Source: a virus (Duplodnaviria > Caudoviricetes). Taken from it: a DNA stretch of 64,000 nt. Shown piece after piece: positions 14,745 to 59,253 of the stretch. Every line of letters starts with the position of its first letter. Within the stretch, counting starts at the first letter, position 1. The stretch is from the IMG/VR virus record IMGVR_UViG_3300013121_000047, positions 1 through 64,000 of that record; one strand, 5' to 3'. The notes beneath the pieces were generated by a model, which had not been told where the DNA came from, made no database searches, and saw nothing but the letters and a program-made list of their open reading frames with translations. The translations under genes were made by a program, and so were the position numbers.

Positions 14745-14764
14745 AACAAAAATAACTATCTGTT

Positions 14765-16698: not shown

Positions 16699-17340
16699 GT
16701 GGAAACAATAAAAATCAGAACCTATCAAGATCTTCCTAGAAAATTCACAGGAATTGCTGAATGGCATAATGGAACCAAATATTGGTTTAAAGAAGGAAAA
16801 CTTCACCGAGAAGATGGGCCAGCAAAAGAATTCGCTAATGGAACAAAAGAATGGTGGCTTAACGGACGTATTCATCGAGAAGATGGTCCTGCGGCGGAAT
16901 TTCCAGACGGGTCAAAAGAATTTTGGATTAAAGGGGAAATTTTTAATGTTTTTAATGATGACAGTGAATTTTTCTTGAAATTAACTGAGTTATTCCAGAT
17001 TTTAGATGAGGTTGCGCAAACAAATCCAATATTTGATTTTTCTTATAACAAAAAAATAGAAAACGAAATTTTAATCTTTTCAGGCTTTTGTTTTGTTAGT
17101 TCTTTTCAAGATGGTTTTAAAATCACTGGTCAATCAACAGGAGAAATTATGGTGGATTACGAACCTATTTTTAGAATTTTCACAGAAGAAAATCTTTATA
17201 AACTTGCAAAAGAAATGCTTGAAATTGGAATTGAACATCTTGAAGAAAAAAATAATCTAAAGTATAGCGAAGAAGAAAAGATAAATAACCCATTACTAAG
17301 AGAAACACTTAGTTTAAAATCTTTCCTTTTCAATAGTTAG
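16699..17340 (+). CDS. HRxDGPA-repeat family protein with unrelated C-terminal domain
   Basis: METIKIRTYQDLPRKFTG plus two HREDGPA repeats; lies between neck genes. Confidence 0.8.
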   Translation: METIKIRTYQDLPRKFTGIAEWHNGTKYWFKEGKLHREDGPAKEFANGTKEWWLNGRIHREDGPAAEFPDGSKEFWIKGEIFNVFNDDSEFFLKLTELFQILDEVAQTNPIFDFSYNKKIENEILIFSGFCFVSSFQDGFKITGQSTGEIMVDYEPIFRIFTEENLYKLAKEMLEIGIEHLEEKNNLKYSEEEKINNPLLRETLSLKSFLFNS

Positions 17341-44157: not shown

Positions 44158-44709
44158 TTAACTATTATCTAATGTGTTTTTTAATGGATGTTTAAATGCT
44201 ATTTTTGCAAGAGGGTGCATTTGCTGTTGTGGAGCTTGAGTTTGTTGAGGAATTCCAGTTCCATATGGAATATATCCTTGTGGTGGAGCTTGAACTGGGT
44301 AACTCATTTCGTTTCCTGTGTATCCAATTTGTTGATTTCCATTGTTTGCTACTGCGGTAAAAGCAGGATGCCCTGTTCCTTGGCCAAAAAATGGTTGTCT
44401 TTGGTTCATTTCCATGCTCATCTGTTGAGGATTTGTTACTTTGGCGGTATCAGCAAAAATAGCCTCTAAAACATTTTTCTTTGCTGGGTCGTTCCCCGCT
44501 ACAGCACTCGCTAAAGTAGAAATATGGTTTGTTACATTTGGGTCTAATCCATATTTTCCTTGTGCTTGATTTTGCACAGTTCCAGGAATTGCACCAGCAT
44601 TAAACACACTAGCAAGTTCACCATTCGCAACCATCTCCTTAATCAACTCTTTTATCATGTTTTTCAATTCAGCACGGCGCAGTATCACTTTATTTTCTTT
44701 TATATCCAT
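44158..44709 (-). CDS. Gln/Pro-rich putative head-associated protein
   Basis: ELKNMIKELIKE N-terminus; follows protease gene. Confidence 0.5.
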   Translation of the reverse strand: MDIKENKVILRRAELKNMIKELIKEMVANGELASVFNAGAIPGTVQNQAQGKYGLDPNVTNHISTLASAVAGNDPAKKNVLEAIFADTAKVTNPQQMSMEMNQRQPFFGQGTGHPAFTAVANNGNQQIGYTGNEMSYPVQAPPQGYIPYGTGIPQQTQAPQQQMHPLAKIAFKHPLKNTLDNS

Positions 44710-46266: not shown

Positions 46267-46326
46267 TTTTAACCTTATATCGATATTTAACTATTAGATT
46301 GGTAATCGTTTTTAAAAGTAATATAC

Positions 46327-51658: not shown

Positions 51659-54312
51659 ATGAAAATAACTGATACCTTATTAAACAAAGCTCACCAAGAC
51701 GTTGTGTTTGGAGATAAAGGACAAAAAGAATTATTGAAAGGTGCCGAAATTTTATATCGTGCAGTTAAATCAACAATGGGTCCATCAGGGCGCAATGTTA
51801 TTATCGACAATGGAATTTCTCCGCCTTTTATTACAAAGGACGGGGTTACTGTTGCGAAAAATATTAATTTAAAAAATCATTTACAAAATATTGGCGCAGG
51901 ACTTGTAAAAGAGGTTGCATTAAAAACAAATGAATTAGGTGGAGATGGACCGCAACCACTATACTCAAAAATATTAACCCCAACAGGTTGGAAAACTATG
52001 GGTGATATAAAAATTGGAGATACAATTTGCGGAACTAATAACACTTTTCAAAAAGTTCTTGGTGTATATCCAAAAGGAAAAAAAGAAATCTATAAAATAG
52101 AATTTTCTGGTGGTCAATTTGTAGAGTGCTGCGAAGATCATTTATGGAGTATAGTAACAAATACTGGTAAAAAAAAGACAATTACAACAAAAGAATTATT
52201 TCAGTCTGGTGTTGTTTTTTATAAAAAAATACTAGATGCCATAAATTCTATGTTCCAAATACAAGTGTTGAATTCGCAGAAAAAACAAAACTAAAAATTG
52301 ACCCATATACTTTAGGTGTGTTGCTTGGTGATGGCAGTTTATCTATGGGGAAAACTTCTGTCGAAATTTCAGTAGGTTTAAACGAAGAATATATTCTAAA
52401 CAATCTTATTTTACCAAAAAACAATAAAATCAACAAATCTTTTTATATGAAAAAACATTATATAAAAGGAAAAATAGGTAAAATTAACAAGTATCATAAT
52501 GGAAAAGATATAAAAGATTTTTTACGTGAATTAAATTTATTGGGAACATATAGTCATACAAAATTTATTCCTGATTCATATTTATTTTCTTCAAAAAAAT
52601 CTCGTGAAGCTTTATTAAACGGCTTAATCGATACGGATGGTTATATAAATAACAAAAACCTTTTTGAAATTTCCACAGTAAGTGAACAGTTGAAGAATGA
52701 TATTGTTTTTTTATGTCGTAGTTTAGGAAAACAGGTTTGTGTTACAGAATATGCAAGAAAACCAGGCAGCGCATTTGGAACAAGAAAAATTTATCGAATT
52801 ACTGAGCTTAAAGGTCGAAAATATGGAATTCAAATAAAGTCCATAAAACCAACAGGATCATTTACTGAAATGCAGTGTATTAAAGTAAGTAATTCTGATT
52901 CGTTGTACATTACAGACAATTTCATTCCAACACACAATACAACAACCGCGACTGTTTTGGCCTATCATTTATTTAATAGTGGATATAAATTTTCTGCTGC
53001 GGGACGCAATGCTATCCTTTTAAAAAAGGGTATTGATTGGGCAACTGATGTTGTTATCAAACGGCTAAAAGAAATTTCAACAGAAGTTAGAAACGATGAA
53101 GATATCATCTCTGTTGGAACAATTTCAGCAAATGGTGACAGAGAAATTGGAAAACTTCTTTGCGAGGCTATTAAAAAAGTTGGAGAAGATGGAATTATTA
53201 CTGTTGAAAAAGCTAAAAGTGTCAAAACTACGTTAAGCGTAATTGATGGTTTAAATTTAGATGTTGGTTACATTTCTCCATTTTTCGTAACAAATCAAGA
53301 AAAATTAACTTCAGATTTAGAAAATCCACTCGTATTGGTAACAAATAAAAAGATTTCAACCAAAGAGCAACTTATTCCTGTAATGAAAATTGCCAATGAA
53401 AAATCTAGATCACTTTTAATTATTGCAGATGAAATAGACCAAGAACCACTTCACATGTTATTAACCAATAAAATGCATGGAGCGGTAATTTCTTGTGCTG
53501 TCAAAGCTCCATCTTATGGCGATAACAGAATTGATATATTACATGATATTTGTCTTATAACAGGCGCAACCTGTTTTGATGCTGCGCAGTCAATTCAATT
53601 GGAAAAATTAAAAGAAGAACATCTTGGTTCATGCGAAAAAATAGTTGTTTCTAAAATGTCAACCACTTTTTTTGGACTTGGAGAGTCTGTTAAAAAAGAA
53701 CAAATTGATGAAAGAGTAAAAGAACTCAAGCAAGTTTTATCGATGCCCGTAGAGGGCTTGGATGACTTAAAAAGAAATAATGTTAAAAAACGACTTGCTA
53801 AACTTGCTGGTGGCATTGCTATCATTCACGTTGGCGGCTCAACAGAAGTTGAAATAATAGAGAAAAAAGACAGAGTAGATGATGCCTTAAATGCAACACA
53901 AGCCGCAGTGCAAGAAGGAATATTACCAGGCGGTGGAACTGCTCTTTTTTATTGTTCGGAGTTTTTAAATGAAAAAATTTCAAAAAATGAAGAGGGGTTA
54001 AGTGAAGATGAAATTTTTGGTGCAAAAATTGTTTACGAAACTTGTAAAGCTCCCTTGAAAGTCATTGTTGATAACACAGGAAAAAATCCAGAAGTTGTTA
54101 TGGATCATATTTTAAGAACAACCAATTCCTTAAACTATGGATATAATGCGTTTACTCATACATATGAAAACTTAATAGACAATGGAGTATCTGATCCTGT
54201 TAAAGTAACAAGATATGCCCTTGAATTTGCAAGCTCTGTTGTAGGCTTGATGCTTACTTGTAACTGTGTTATTATGACGCCAGAAGAAGAAAGAAACGAA
54301 ATAGAGGAATAA
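51659..54312 (+). CDS. groEL: Chaperonin GroEL (about 554 aa after splicing) containing an intein; frameshift at 52223-52229
   Basis: TMGPSGRNV, ITKDGVTVAK, GDG|TTTATVLA, ISANGD, GYISPFF, RLAKLAGG, GILPGGG, DPVKVTR. Confidence 0.92.
51950..52938 (+). mobile_element. Class 3 intein with LAGLIDADG endonuclease
   Basis: Pro1 (PQPLYSKILTPTGW), CEDHLW (Trp B12), LGVLLGDG, LNGLIDTDG, MQCIKV (Cys F4), IPTHN|T (Thr G5). Confidence 0.88.
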
Positions 54313-55181: not shown

Positions 55182-55216
55182 AACGATAATTATGTCTTTA
55201 ACTATTTATTATCGCC

Positions 55217-55624
55217 ATGAGTTATTCATATAATAAAGCAGGAGCGGGTCTAGTTTCAGAATTTCAAATTTCTGGTTTACCATTTGTTACATCAAGTACT
55301 GCTGCTGCCGTTTCTGTTTCTTTTCCTTATGTTACACAATGGATTATGGTTAGGTCGAGCGGTTCAGTTATTACAATGGCCTTTACACCATCTGGATTTT
55401 CTACTGGAAACAATTTCCTTATTCCAGCAAACACCACAATTGGTCCACTTCGGTTACGAATAACCGACCTACATTTTAGTGGATCTGGGATGCAAGTTAT
55501 TGGTGGTTTAACTCAAATTGATATAAACAACTACTTTAAACTAGTTTCCACTGGAGCGCTTACAACACTAACTGGTGGATTGGCTGTTACTGATACCAAT
55601 TATTTTGCTTATAGAGGAATTTAA
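55217..55624 (+). CDS. Small beta-rich putative virion protein, copy 1 of 3
   Basis: QISGLPFVT...FPYVTQW...GLT...DTNYFAYRGI. Confidence 0.65.
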   Translation: MSYSYNKAGAGLVSEFQISGLPFVTSSTAAAVSVSFPYVTQWIMVRSSGSVITMAFTPSGFSTGNNFLIPANTTIGPLRLRITDLHFSGSGMQVIGGLTQIDINNYFKLVSTGALTTLTGGLAVTDTNYFAYRGI

Positions 55625-55627
55625 AAC

Positions 55628-56023
55628 ATGAGTGTGTACAAAACAGGGCAATACAATGTGCCAAATTATCAAGTTTCTGGTCTTCCTTTTGTAACTTTTG
55701 CTGGCGGACCTATGGTTATTGAATTTCCTTATCTGACACAGTGGATCTTATTGAGAACAACAACCAGTTTAAGAGTTGGTTTCTCTCAAGGAGCACTAAC
55801 GAATGTTAACGATATTAACGGTTTAAGTACATCGTTCGTTCAAATGATTCCATTAAACGTTAGAATAAAAAAACTTTATGTAACAGGCGGAAGTTGTTAT
55901 GTGCTCGCAGGTTTAACAGGAATTGAAAATGGTTTTGAGCTAATTAACACTGCCTCATTAGCTGCGATTTCAGGTACCACCGATTTGGATTCTACAAATA
56001 TTTTTGCTTATAGAGGTATTTAA
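55628..56023 (+). CDS. Small beta-rich putative virion protein, copy 2 of 3
   Basis: QVSGLPFVT...FPYLTQW...TNIFAYRGI. Confidence 0.65.
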   Translation: MSVYKTGQYNVPNYQVSGLPFVTFAGGPMVIEFPYLTQWILLRTTTSLRVGFSQGALTNVNDINGLSTSFVQMIPLNVRIKKLYVTGGSCYVLAGLTGIENGFELINTASLAAISGTTDLDSTNIFAYRGI

Positions 56024-56027
56024 AAAC

Positions 56028-56456
56028 ATGAGTATAAATCATCCTTTTAGTGGTTATGGATTTACACCAGAATATCAATTATCTGGGCTCCCTTATGTTA
56101 CGGGTGTCTCTCCAACTGACACAAGATTTAAAATTGAATTTCCTTACGTTACCCAGTGGTTTTATTTAAGATTTACGCAAGTTGCCAGATCCGCTTCGAT
56201 ATCATTTGAATCAACAAATGCCTCAACTTTAAACAAAATTAGTTTTGAGGCTTCTTCGGGAAATATGTTTTTTGGTCCATTCTTTTTAAGAATAAAAGAT
56301 CTTAATATAGAACAGACGCATGGAGTTCATGTTATAGCTGGTTTAACTTCAATTCCAAGAGCACGCGCGCCAAGTTTAGTATCTCCAATAAATTCATCTG
56401 TAACGGGTAGTTTATCTGCTGTTGATACAAACTACTTTATTTATAATGGAATTTAA
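56028..56456 (+). CDS. Small beta-rich putative virion protein, copy 3 of 3
   Basis: Start MSINHP at 56028; QLSGLPYVT...FPYVTQW...DTNYFIYNGI. Confidence 0.65.
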   Translation: MSINHPFSGYGFTPEYQLSGLPYVTGVSPTDTRFKIEFPYVTQWFYLRFTQVARSASISFESTNASTLNKISFEASSGNMFFGPFFLRIKDLNIEQTHGVHVIAGLTSIPRARAPSLVSPINSSVTGSLSAVDTNYFIYNGI

Positions 56457-58144
56457 TCTTTCAACAAACAAGAAATCGGAATTCCAAACATTTTTATCCC
56501 AGTAATGTCTTTTTTGTTAGCCAAATCATTTTCCGCATTTTGTCTATTTACCAATTCATTTGAAAGTGAATTTTGGTGCGCATTTATTATGTTTTGATTA
56601 ACTGATTTTGGTTGAATTGACTTTAAAAATATTTCCTCCCAAGAAATTCCATTTTGAGATTGTTTATTTGCACTGAGCCCTGTTGGTTCGTAAACTAGTA
56701 ATGCAAAAGAAAGTGCCATAATGGAGTCATCAAATTTTCCTCTTATTGCTTGTGTCTTTTTGCCATTCCAAATAAAAGTATCTAATTCTTTTGCAAATCT
56801 AATAGAATTAATTCTTAATAACTTATTTCTTAGTACATTTTCAAGTTGGGATAAAAGTTTTTCTCTAATTTTTGGAGAAGTTGTATGACCAGGATAAATA
56901 TTTTCTCTTTCCTCGTCGGTCATTAAATGAAGGTTTTCTGTAATCTTTTCTTCGTAGTAAAGATTTGGATACTTTAGATCTCTTAGTTTTATAGCCGCAG
57001 CAATTCCAATTGAGTTCATTTCATTGATAATTTTTGCAGTGTTATACTTGTATCCGTATTCAACTAAAAGTTCGGCAAATTTATCTGGTGGCATTTTACC
57101 ATAGAACTCTCCAACTTGCTCATCTGTATCCATATCAATTATATGACAGCAAGAATGATCTTCTCCATCTCCACGAGCGATATCGCTTGTAATGATATAT
57201 TTATGATCTTGCTCTGGTAATGTCCAAATCCAAAAATCATTGTTTTTAGCTTCTTCAGAAATCGGCATAGTGATACCAGATTTAATCCATTCAATAGTAT
57301 CCGCATCAAAAAATGTATTTCCAGAACCTTCAAATCCACAACAGTATTCTTTGTCAATTTTTTTAGCATCCATTGACTTAGTTTCATTCTCAAACCATTT
57401 TTCATCTCTATCAGGATGGACTTGCCAAGGCAGTTTTATCGCATGAAAACCATTTATACCAACTTCCTCGCAATGAAGACCAACTCGATCCTTTCTAAGT
57501 TCTCCAGTGTCTGCATTTTTATAAATGTCATAAAACTCATTTTTACCGTTTGGAGAAGAGAAAAGGATTGCGTCGCCGCCAGTTGTAATGGTTGGTCTCG
57601 CAGCTTCCCATATGTCAGAAAATTTCTCGATGTGAGCGCATTCATCAATAATCAATAAGGAACACGCAATACCACGAACGCTTTCTGGTGTTGTTGGTAT
57701 TGCTTCAATTTTTGAACCATTTGTGAACTCGATATATTTAACAGATTCCTTTTCTGTTTCTGTTAATCCTAATAGCCTTTTAATCCAATCTGGAACATCT
57801 TTAAACGCAATTCGAATTTTCTGAATCATATTCTTGGCAGTTTCTAGACGCGTTGCCATTAACCTTATATCTTTGTCCATATGAAACATGGCATACCATA
57901 AACAATATGCCGAAGTAATTGTACTTAGCCCAAGTTGTCTAGATTTAACAACAATATTGTATTTAAATTCCAAAAAGTCATTAATACAATCTTCTTGAAA
58001 TGGATAAAGTTTAAGAGGAATTCTCCCTTTGACTGGGTGCTGTATGTATATATAATTTTTAATAAAGTGAATTGGATCTTCTTTACATCTCTGTAATTCT
58101 TGGAGCTTTAGATTCACCTGAGCTTTTTGCGTATCATTTGCCAT
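56453..58144 (-). CDS. terL: Terminase large subunit (gp17 family)
   Basis: LYPFQ adenine motif, KSRQLGLST Walker A, LLIIDE Walker B, SSPNG, nuclease DIARGDGED...DDSIMA. Confidence 0.95.
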   Translation of the reverse strand: MANDTQKAQVNLKLQELQRCKEDPIHFIKNYIYIQHPVKGRIPLKLYPFQEDCINDFLEFKYNIVVKSRQLGLSTITSAYCLWYAMFHMDKDIRLMATRLETAKNMIQKIRIAFKDVPDWIKRLLGLTETEKESVKYIEFTNGSKIEAIPTTPESVRGIACSLLIIDECAHIEKFSDIWEAARPTITTGGDAILFSSPNGKNEFYDIYKNADTGELRKDRVGLHCEEVGINGFHAIKLPWQVHPDRDEKWFENETKSMDAKKIDKEYCCGFEGSGNTFFDADTIEWIKSGITMPISEEAKNNDFWIWTLPEQDHKYIITSDIARGDGEDHSCCHIIDMDTDEQVGEFYGKMPPDKFAELLVEYGYKYNTAKIINEMNSIGIAAAIKLRDLKYPNLYYEEKITENLHLMTDEERENIYPGHTTSPKIREKLLSQLENVLRNKLLRINSIRFAKELDTFIWNGKKTQAIRGKFDDSIMALSFALLVYEPTGLSANKQSQNGISWEEIFLKSIQPKSVNQNIINAHQNSLSNELVNRQNAENDLANKKDITGIKMFGIPISCLLKD

Positions 58145-58162
58145 GGTATATTTAATAACTCT

Positions 58163-58780
58163 TTATTTTTTAAAATATTCAGCTATAAAAAGATCGGGAA
58201 AATCTTTTGGTGATGATATTGCAATAATTTTTCCATATGGGTGAACACTTGGTTTCGCAACCTCAAGGAGATCTTGAAAATTAGGTGCAAACATTATTTC
58301 GTCAAATAAAACATAAGAAACAGACTCACCTTTAAAAGAAGATATTGTAGGCGGAAGAATTTTAATTGAAGCACCGTTACTGAACTGAATCTTGGTATTT
58401 GTTTCATTTTCTAGTTTCAGATATTTCGTAAACCAAGCTGGCAATAAAGTAAGTTGATACTTAATTTTTTGTAGAAGATATTTACCTGATGCAAACGAAC
58501 TAGCACAAATTATTGAAGACGCGCCGAAAAGTACAGCATTCTGTATTGCAAAAGCAATTAAAAAAGAAGTTTTACCAATTTGTCTTTTAGCAAAAAGAAA
58601 ATCTCCTGAAGGAGAATTGTTTATTCTTTCATTGAAAAATTTTTGATAATCATTAAAAATAAATGGTATATTACCTTTAACGGGGTTTTGTAAAAATAAA
58701 CATTCCTTTGAAAAGAGTGAAAGGTCATTTTTATAGTCTTCTATTTTCGTTTTTTCGTTAATAAGATTGATTATAGACAT
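58163..58780 (-). CDS. Terminase ATPase-domain-only paralog
   Basis: QNPVKGNIPF.FNDYQ, KRQIGKTS, FSNGASI, GESVSYVLFDE, ISSP; ends before the nuclease domain. Confidence 0.82.
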   Translation of the reverse strand: MSIINLINEKTKIEDYKNDLSLFSKECLFLQNPVKGNIPFIFNDYQKFFNERINNSPSGDFLFAKRQIGKTSFLIAFAIQNAVLFGASSIICASSFASGKYLLQKIKYQLTLLPAWFTKYLKLENETNTKIQFSNGASIKILPPTISSFKGESVSYVLFDEIMFAPNFQDLLEVAKPSVHPYGKIIAISSPKDFPDLFIAEYFKK

Positions 58781-58809
58781 AGTATTCCTTAACTATATCA
58801 TAATATTAG

Positions 58810-59253
58810 TTATTTTACTTGGATTAATGCAAAAACTTTAAAAACTGAGGTTTTTTGAACACTATAGATCTGATAGGATAATGGATCAGAAGTTTCTTGG
58901 ATCGAATTATCTAACAATTCGAGCTTTATTTTCTTTTTAGCTGGTTCAGTGTTTTCATTTTTTGAAAGAACTTCGTTACTTTTGGCAATCTCGCTTAATT
59001 TTTCATAATCTTCTTCAATTTTTTTCATCCTTTTTTGAATATCGCTCAAAGCATCTTGTCGCCATTTTCTTTGAAGTTCTAATTTTACGGATTGATGTCC
59101 AGCAGAAACAAACGATTGATGGACAACTTTTATTAAAGTTTCATCGGCAGCTTCAAATTTTATCCAATGAGTGTTTCTTTCATCTTGTCCAGAATTCTGA
59201 GCCAGGGCGTTTGCTAATCTTTGATAAGTTAAATAATTTTTTACCTGTGACAT
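58810..59253 (-). CDS. Hypothetical protein (late motif upstream)
   Basis: TAATTA 8 nt upstream. Confidence 0.5.
   Translation of the reverse strand: MSQVKNYLTYQRLANALAQNSGQDERNTHWIKFEAADETLIKVVHQSFVSAGHQSVKLELQRKWRQDALSDIQKRMKKIEEDYEKLSEIAKSNEVLSKNENTEPAKKKIKLELLDNSIQETSDPLSYQIYSVQKTSVFKVFALIQVK

Follow-up and report, generated by a model that had tools for sequence, protein, structure and literature searches.

A predicted stand-alone terminase ATPase core encoded directly upstream of the large terminase gene in a subclade of jumbo phages

[quoted passage not shown] TerL ATPase domains in isolation can be active (PMC5727402). Stand-alone ATPase cores of this kind are emerging in several phage groups. 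[quoted passage not shown] 2026, Nat Commun, PMC13601566). CBB_274 (235 aa) of the Rak2-like Pectobacterium phage CBB, which has a homolog in GAP32, is a nuclease-less TerL-ATPase homolog encoded immediately upstream of terL. Ksap1 and Ksap2, the triggers of KpAvs2, are small proteins from few phage taxa with a TerL-ATPase-like arrangement of sheet and helices (PMC11564622). A literature search for the phrase "truncated large terminase" returned nothing, and a jumbo-phage comparative review makes no mention of such terminase paralogs.

The window analyzed here is a 64,000-nt stretch of an uncultured jumbo phage record, IMGVR_UViG_3300013121_000047, and S is used as shorthand for a 205-aa ORF within it. 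S shares with N-subdomain I of T4 gp17 (PF03237) the fold, the Q-motif, the Arg-bearing P-loop, the Asp-Glu pair of Walker B and the C-motif, and its P-loop is of the classic RQxGKT type found in gp17. However, S differs from T4-type TerL in being a separate protein without the lid, the linker and the RNase H-like nuclease, and it coexists with a complete TerL of the other P-loop type, KSRQxGLST. A kinship between S and T4 vs.8 closer than general TerL homology was looked for with hhalign and with the S profile but was not found: the hhalign probability is 32%, and the S profile gives vs.8 9.5 bits as against 76-118 bits for TerLs. The vs.8 gene lies next to denV, far from genes 16 and 17, whereas S lies directly upstream of terL. 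T4 vs.8 triggers EcAvs2 (PMC13601566); S resembles it in size, in the TerL ATPase fold and in having Walker A and B, with weak sequence similarity.

The likeness between S and CBB_274 (hhalign probability 88%, E 3e-6) is likewise no more than general TerL homology. CBB_274 overlaps CBB_275, whereas 18 nt separate S from terL. The motifs of CBB_274 are degenerate, RGAGLST replacing the P-loop and YDS replacing Asp-Glu, and it retains part of the lid; in contrast, S keeps GKT and DE and has no lid. Phage CBB has the classic GKT in its full TerL, the reverse of the window. For Ksap1 and Ksap2, the accessible part of the source describes at most weak structural likeness to TerL and reports neither TerL sequence homology nor nucleotide-binding motifs (PMC11564622), whereas S is a clear TerL sequence homolog with all motifs present. 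T4 vs.8 and CBB_274 are precedents for mini-copies of the TerL ATPase, of which S, judged by its motifs, is a catalytically intact variant.

The S family is an informative extreme among such proteins, its catalytic residues all being under selection while the rest changes faster than any neighbor, and it pairs a classic P-loop with an adjoining deviant-P-loop TerL. This provides a clean test case for telling enzymatic action on or with the packaging motor from binding in conflict with terminase-sensing immunity. Should the first role be demonstrated, a very well studied machine would gain a new component; should it be the second, phage counter-defence would. S is a small gene, open to synthesis and heterologous testing.

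Anatomy and catalytic motifs of S

S and terL are arranged as follows.

58163-58780, minus strand: S, 205 aa, very probably the stand-alone ASCE core (N-subdomain I) of a TerL ATPase
56453-58144, minus strand: TerL, the full large terminase, 563 aa, intein-free, with a deviant Walker A
58145-58162, minus strand: spacer between S and terL, 18 nt, without a TAGTTA-type motif

An earlier note on this DNA had described this pair of ORFs, the shorter one aligning to the N-terminal domain of TerL, ending before the nuclease domain, carrying a different type of Walker A and keeping its motifs intact despite divergence. The description holds on each count. S aligns with the adjacent TerL at 30% identity in BLASTP (E 2e-22; S residues 12-191 on TerL residues 16-198), and the shared motifs quoted in the note are real. 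Pfam PF03237 (Terminase_6N) matches S at 36.6 bits and its orthologs at 38.4 and 28.6 bits, above the cut-off of 22. PHROG families annotated as "terminase large subunit" also match S, and the S profile matches gp17 of T4 and RB49 with E values of 1e-20 to 1e-22. The alignment with TerL stops at about TerL residue 200, and S has no C-terminal RNase H-like domain. The C-terminus of S lies about 14 residues past S-x-P, and the lid subdomain (N-subdomain II) is missing as well.

Consistently, the AlphaFold (AF2) model of S (pLDDT 88.8, pTM 0.86) has the ATPase domain of T4 gp17 (2o0j) as its top structural match in both Foldseek and VIA, with a VIA Z score of 20.6 and an rmsd of 2.6 Å over 194 residues. 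Residues 1-199 of the model superpose on gp17 residues 100-313 (Foldseek E 1.4e-12), and the equivalent of gp17 residue 313 is both the end of S and the end of the ASCE core. P74-26 TerL is also aligned by the S model, over residues 4-198 of about 250. Identity and anatomy together make it highly probable that S is the ASCE core alone of a large terminase, with neither lid nor nuclease.

The catalytic motifs were compared across an alignment of 11 S sequences from five lineages, which are separated by 1.8-3.4 substitutions per site.

58565-58588, minus strand: Walker A of S, K65-R-Q-I-G-K-T-S72; R66, Q67, G69, K70 and T71 invariant (n=11)
58298-58312, minus strand: Walker B of S, V-L-F-D160-E161; Asp and catalytic Glu invariant (n=11)
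58208-58216, minus strand: C-motif of S, S189-S-P191; S189 and P191 invariant; aligns with the TTT/TPN region of T4 gp17
57920-57946, minus strand: Walker A of TerL, KSRQLGLST, of the deviant type

The adenine-binding Q46 of the Q-motif is invariant in all 11 sequences. R150, about 10 residues before Walker B, is nearly invariant and is also kept in TerLs. The P-loop of S is the classic RQxGKT, whereas the full TerLs of the host clade all have KSRQxG[LI]ST. S is likely to bind ATP and probably to hydrolyze it. The invariance of the catalytic Glu and of S-x-P over about 2-3 substitutions per site suggests a working ATPase; neither would be needed by a passive mimic.

Genomic setting and evolution of S

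Two features precede S in the direction of transcription.

58781-58809, minus strand: upstream signals of S; TATAGTTA at 58790-58797 overlaps the AAGGA ribosome-binding site at 58786-58790
58810-59253, minus strand: conserved gene of 147 aa, upstream of S; its position alone makes it a small-terminase candidate

The ribosome-binding site and the TAGTTA that had been ascribed to S are both present, TAGTTA being at 58790-58795 directly upstream of the S ATG. TATAGTTA is a longer form of TAGTTA and is kept shortly before S in the window as well as in L009 and L008; none is present before terL in the lineages compared. TAGTTA occurs within 40 nt upstream of 9 of the 69 genes (about 0.5 expected), and its placement upstream of genes is thus non-random. 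As a word enriched over the whole window it was rejected (27 matches against 43.7 expected). Because the spacer between S and terL has no TAGTTA-type motif, terL is probably co-transcribed with S. Translational coupling of the two genes in L008, where they overlap by 4 nt, is not claimed because the overlap hinges on a doubtful GTG start.

S takes the place immediately before terL, but in L015, a relative without S, this place is filled by the ortholog of the 147-aa gene, which lies directly upstream of terL. The 147-aa protein has no Pfam or PHROG match, no similarity to T4 gp16 and no PDB match, and the Atlas leads obtained for it are weak and come from a poor model. S itself was ruled out as a small terminase (TerS) by its ASCE ATPase fold.

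The earlier note had proposed to examine distribution and dN/dS, and both checks were run. S is lineage-restricted and its position is conserved: it is confined to one subclade of jumbo phages of about 390 kb and always lies between the 147-aa gene and terL. A complete 305-kb relative lacks it despite shared synteny, as do about 35 further TerL loci. A viral scan with S alone as the query gave no matches, and a scan with the S family alignment gave four contigs already known and otherwise full TerLs only. Among the matches listed in a metagenome scan, there was one full TerL (L005) and no S. The nearest orthologs, of the P0002 and P0003 types, are 70-73% identical to S. About 17 distinct S sequences are known, in the clusters of P0002, P0003 and P0124 and as HNC55845.1.

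S is the fastest-evolving gene locally, with 45% identity compared with 68-87% for all 15 neighbors. Its dN is 0.47 as against 0.05 for the N-domain of TerL, a rate about 10 times higher. By the NG86 method, dN/dS is about 0.30 for S, whose dS is saturated, and 0.03 for the TerL N-domain. The C-terminus is plastic: in one member, P0124, the strand ahead of the C-motif is missing, and L008 alone carries about 45 further residues. Nevertheless, the reading frame is open at 35-47% identity with almost no indels across the five lineages. S is not decaying; it is under purifying selection with a high rate.

Mobile elements cluster in the terL gene of the S clade. L009-type genomes have a mini-intein after IIDE of terL, L008 has a TnsA-like endonuclease ORF at the same terL site, and LAGLIDADG inteins occur in 963-aa TerL homologs. 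S might accordingly be a decaying or selfish partial duplicate of terL, generated as inteins and endonucleases moved through the Walker B site and heading to catalytic death, and CBB_274 with its RGAGLST and YDS motifs is a similar arrangement in which the motifs have degenerated. This explanation is very unlikely and is largely refuted by the sequences: the frame is intact in lineages 1.8-3.4 substitutions per site apart, the catalytic residues are all invariant, and dN/dS is about 0.3. Furthermore, the TerL-homologous region extends across the intein site, indicating that S is no simple exon copy. A decaying duplicate, which the earlier note had named as speaking against its own reading, is thus not what is seen.

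Candidate roles of S

We tentatively propose that S is a selectively maintained, predicted expressed and probably catalytically competent ATPase that serves as an accessory partner or regulator of the terminase. Its insertion between the 147-aa gene and terL would date to the ancestor of a single jumbo-phage subclade with genomes of about 390 kb, with vertical inheritance since. S and TerL would most likely be made together from the shared upstream element, on the presumption that they are co-transcribed. The ASCE module of S, acting in an ATP-dependent manner, may then dock on TerL or on terminase partners, being itself unable to cut DNA, to transmit force through a lid or to package. The fixed position of S upstream of terL and the presence of TATAGTTA in three lineages count for the partner reading. 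However, S evolves about 10 times faster than the TerL domain on which it would dock, as a tight motor partner would not usually do. Its absence from related phages indicates that it is dispensable there and also counts against a partner, as does the unsupported small-terminase identity of the 147-aa neighbor. That the role is tied to packaging, and not to immunity or to something unrelated, is possible but falls somewhat short of an even chance. A regulatory motor subunit, which had been the second suggestion of the earlier note, is a viable reading of these sequences. A more speculative alternative is that S assembles with TerL into a mixed ring, so that the packaging motor would carry P-loops of both types.

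The pattern of conservation in S bears on a different possibility. Only 34 of about 205 alignment columns are invariant, and although the catalytic set is intact, conserved surface outside the active site and the core is sparse. Together with the high evolutionary rate of S, this would fit a small NTPase that has parted from the terminase and been neofunctionalized, for instance as a nucleotide-dependent switch or in DNA metabolism, and stays beside terL by origin only. The T4 analog vs.8, which is located among early and middle genes, also agrees with such a role. In contrast, no lineage seen departs from the placement of S immediately before terL or lacks the shared upstream motif, and the N-terminal segment common to TerL and S (with DP..F and HPVKG.IPF) ranks with the best-conserved parts of S. 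We consider such an unrelated NTPase doubtful.

The earlier note had favored a decoy made alongside TerL against Avs sensors; this idea finds no support here and is weakened by published work on these triggers. For five terminases the ATPase domain by itself is a strong activator of EcAvs2, Upx is activated by the TerL ATPase domain alone, and T4 vs.8 is toxic together with EcAvs2 (PMC13601566). An extra core would therefore be expected to add a trigger. Activation rather than blocking of Avs, which the note had named as contrary to its decoy, is thus what is seen for the analog vs.8, not for S itself (PMC13601566). An immune-related role could nevertheless take several forms, S being a sponge or decoy against Avs1-3 or Upx or another anti-defence protein with a TerL fold. 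S has the highest dN in the neighborhood and a patchy, lineage-specific spread, as genes in arms races often do. The PhiV-1 TerL ATPase domain as bound by Avs3 (8dgc_E) superposes with S (Z 16.6). Avs2 reads the ATP site of TerL via a bridging ATP (PMC13601566), and this site is retained in S. Evans et al. have speculated that TerL-like activators that are not terminases may be anti-defence proteins (PMC13601566). However, the catalytic Glu and S-x-P are invariant although mimicry does not require them, S lies in the late packaging operon and not among early accessory genes, and its overall dN/dS is below 1. An immune-related mimic is therefore unlikely. The more specific proposal, that S is an ATP-loaded counter-defence mimic of TerL that would occupy or misdirect Avs1-3 and Upx, and would belong to a broader set of domain-only copies made by the phage of its own conserved virion and packaging proteins, appears decidedly improbable.

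Origin of S

The tree of S follows that of TerL, and S is monophyletic with support of 100/99. The best tree places S with the classic-P-loop TerLs L032 and L053 with support of 56/69, but the topology test does not reject a grouping of S with its own TerL clade (p-AU 0.21). The profile scores for S favor its own TerL clade, at 110-118 bits as against 81-88 bits with classic-P-loop TerLs. S had been called a paralog of TerL in the earlier note; homology stands, whereas strict duplication within the genome does not follow, because the tree also allows acquisition from a classic-P-loop TerL lineage. Short TerL-N-like proteins of 187-202 aa with a classic P-loop were also observed (P0165, P0215 and P0216; L057 is a 5-kb contig).

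The S–TerL gene pair and the catalytic core of S

The window covers the opening 64 kb of an IMG/VR virus record that runs to 185 kb and is estimated to be about half complete. The whole record contains two TerL-like sequences:

58163-58780, minus strand, 205-aa ORF (S)
56453-58144, minus strand, 563-aa ORF, T4-type large terminase (TerL)

S lies upstream of TerL, and 18 nt separate the two ORFs. Residues 13-489 of TerL match Pfam Terminase_6N and terminase families of PHROG. The protein shares 37% identity with its counterpart in Microcystis phage Mel-JY01 and 33% with that of the Flavobacterium 'immuto' phages. Because S aligns with TerL residues 16-198 (30% identity, E 2e-22), scores 36.6 bits against Terminase_6N by itself (cut-off 22) and is the only other TerL-like sequence in the record, the observation in the earlier note of an ATPase-only TerL relative directly upstream of the full terminase is correct, including the motifs quoted there.

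The S-family profile matches T4/RB49 gp17 (E 1e-20 to 1e-22) across the gp17 region that carries Walker A, Walker B and the C-motif. The AlphaFold2 model of S, built from an input alignment of 26 rows, is confident (pLDDT 88.8, pTM 0.86). Its top Foldseek match is the T4 gp17 ATPase domain (E 1.4e-12), and VIA-align places model residues 1-199 on gp17 100-313 (Z 20.6, rmsd 2.6 A, 194 residues aligned). In gp17, N-subdomain I ends at residue 313. In P74-26 TerL, whose ATPase domain has ~250 residues, the model covers residues 4-198 only. In large terminases the ATPase domain combines an ASCE subdomain with a lid, and a linker then leads to an RNase H-like nuclease (PMC5727402). By these alignment ends S comprises the ASCE core alone, lacking both lid and nuclease. 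All cis-acting catalytic elements are found in S:

Q46, Q-motif
R66-Q-I-G-K70-T71, P-loop with its Arg
D160-E161, Walker B and catalytic Glu
S189-S-P191, C-motif

A basic residue ~10 positions before Walker B is also kept (K150 in the window's S, Arg in almost all relatives and TerLs), and it may act as a trans-acting finger.

S and TerL differ in Walker A type, as the earlier note had pointed out. All full TerLs of the host clade (the window, the contigs L009, L015, L005, L010 and L021, Mel-JY01 and immuto) carry K-S-R-Q-x-G-[LI]-S-T, in which Lys is absent after Gly and present two residues before Arg, whereas every S sequence has the classic form. R-Q-x-G-K-T without the upstream Lys is the form in T4 gp17, and a small number of TerLs from jumbo phages (contigs L032 and L053) share it. 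The host-clade motif fits the 'deviant Walker A' class reportedly described by Mitchell and Rao in 2004, a paper cited in PMC6379665. Because the cultured phages Mel-JY01 and immuto have the deviant TerL and no S, the deviant form functions on its own.

Distribution, inheritance and origin of S

Among 5.8 billion clustered proteins, near-length matches to S form only two clusters, both of exactly 205 aa with 70-73% identity. When 1.84 billion representatives are searched exhaustively with a profile, the only further members ahead of the first full TerLs are P0124 (200 aa) and P0135, which is a fragment of the S form found in the more distant relative L008. Cluster look-ups give ~17 distinct S sequences on dozens of contigs; one homolog, HNC55845.1 (NCBI; P0274), named 'terminase family protein', lies in a Leptospiraceae MAG. 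The gene order SbcD, SbcC, small ORF, 147-aa gene, S, terL is constant at the IMG/VR S loci. These are a more distant 21-kb contig and three contigs that are nearly identical to each other; the three include a complete genome of 390,884 bp with terminal repeats. S is absent from the entire complete 305-kb genome of a relative (TerL 51% identical), where synteny is kept with the 147-aa ortholog directly before terL, and from ~35 other TerL loci.

S is monophyletic (100/99) and its tree mirrors that of TerL; its inheritance is therefore vertical. Compared with the 390-kb genome, the window's S shows 45% identity and each of its 15 syntenic neighbours 68-87%, and S is the fastest-evolving gene of its neighbourhood.

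Divergence between the window and the 390-kb genome (NG86; all estimates are rough, dS being saturated)
S: dN 0.47, dN/dS about 0.30
TerL N-domain: dN 0.05, dN/dS 0.03
Neighbours: dN 0.08-0.24, dN/dS 0.07-0.23

Across 11 S sequences from 5 lineages, 34 columns are invariant, every listed catalytic residue among them, so purifying selection on S centres on the active site and the core. The motifs are thus intact despite divergence, as first read. The dN/dS ratio, a check proposed at that time, likewise describes a gene that is not decaying. A decaying duplicate is ruled out by the invariant catalytic residues and purifying selection, and a relic is very improbable.

Deviant-P-loop TerLs score highest against the S profile (110-118 bits) and classic ones score 81-88 bits. 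In the best ML tree S joins the classic-P-loop TerLs L032 and L053 weakly (56/69), with long branches involved, and a constraint that groups S with its own clade of TerLs is not rejected (p-AU 0.21). S may have come from in-genome duplication followed by a P-loop switch, or from an acquired classic-type ATPase core. The ancestor of S was longer and underwent trimming later, because the L008 form retains ~45 extra residues aligning with the start of the TerL lid.

Role of S

The catalytic Glu and C-motif are invariant over ~2-3 substitutions per site, which argues that ATP hydrolysis by S, beyond protein shape, would matter; this makes a role as an enzyme or a switch more likely. Its fixed place in the packaging operon suggests that S would act on or with the terminase. 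Such a role on or with the terminase is the best explanation, though a tentative one; that S is an NTPase with a role unrelated to terminase is somewhat unlikely. An immune-related role is a serious rival, albeit an unlikely one: the high rate and dispensability of S fit conflict better than a tight motor partnership. However, the specific model favoured in the earlier note, S as a decoy for Avs sensors, is undercut by the activation of Upx by the TerL ATPase domain alone (Evans et al. 2026, PMC13601566). For TerL-like activators that are not terminases, those authors go no further than to suggest that they may be anti-defence factors which Avs2 has come to recognise (PMC13601566).

The resemblance of T4 vs.8 to S is weak, with an hhalign probability of 32% and an S-profile score of 9.5 bits, and vs.8 lies far from T4 genes 16 and 17; neither hhalign nor the S profile found a relationship closer than general TerL homology. 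In Pectobacterium phage CBB, the gene immediately before that of the full TerL CBB_275 is CBB_274 (235 aa, annotated terminase large subunit), which encodes a homolog of the TerL ATPase whose motifs are degenerate (RGAGLST and YDS), and so the general arrangement is already in GenBank annotation. What is distinctive of S is a fully intact, selected catalytic set together with a swapped P-loop type.

Expression signals, neighbouring genes and inserts

An AAGGA ribosome-binding site precedes the S ATG, and in three sequences (the window, L009 and L008) TATAGTTA stands just before S, bearing out the RBS and TAGTTA first ascribed to S; TATAGTTA is not found before terL in these three. We infer that S and terL would be transcribed together as a unit that begins with this element. 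TAGTTA occurs within 40 nt upstream of 9 of the 69 genes of the window (~0.5 expected) and is not enriched there overall. (T)ATAGTTA, which may be a late-promoter-like or translation-linked element, lies 8-25 nt upstream of many start codons in the window (for example 14753-14759, 17333-17339, 44159-44165, 46288-46294, 55199-55205 and 58790-58796).

The 147-aa protein (58810-59253, minus strand) is 84% identical in the 390-kb relative and is encoded directly upstream of terL in the S-less L015. It has zero matches to any family, PDB entry or T4 gp16 and only its position makes it a candidate small terminase. Three tandem paralogous small genes (55217-56456, plus strand; 135, 131 and 150 aa, ending YRGI or YNGI) converge on the terL 3' end, with 68-83% identity in the 390-kb relative and two copies in L015. 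Homologs of this phage group's S and TerL (P0274, P0054) occur in MAGs labelled Leptospiraceae or Spirochaetes; the labels may hint at the host or reflect a binning error. Further short TerL-N-like proteins in public data (P0165, P0215 and P0216, 187-202 aa; P0193, 223 aa) stop soon after the C-motif. Three have the classic RQxGKT P-loop and intact Asp-Glu, and two are on contigs of 30 and 280 kb; they may be exon fragments or further stand-alone ATPase cores.

The window's TerL is uninterrupted. Its closest homologs, of ~700 aa, have an in-frame insert of ~136 aa right after Walker B (L009:6505-6912, in the TerL of the 390-kb relative). The L009 insert resembles a mini-intein (IIDE|C...SSN|CAHIEKF), with Cys1, a C-terminal Asn, Cys at +1 and Ser as the penultimate residue, which is usually His in inteins. 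Other TerL homologs, of 963 aa, contain LAGLIDADG domains. In L008 (3997-7185), terL is split at that Walker B position by an ORF of 359 aa lying in a different frame (L008:4631-5710). This ORF has a TnsA-like endonuclease domain at its N-terminus (Pfam E 3.6e-9) and may encode a homing endonuclease associated with an intron or intein. The N-terminal part of a GroEL-like gene in the window (52318-54312, plus strand; L009 ortholog 884 aa) also looks like an intein with endonuclease.
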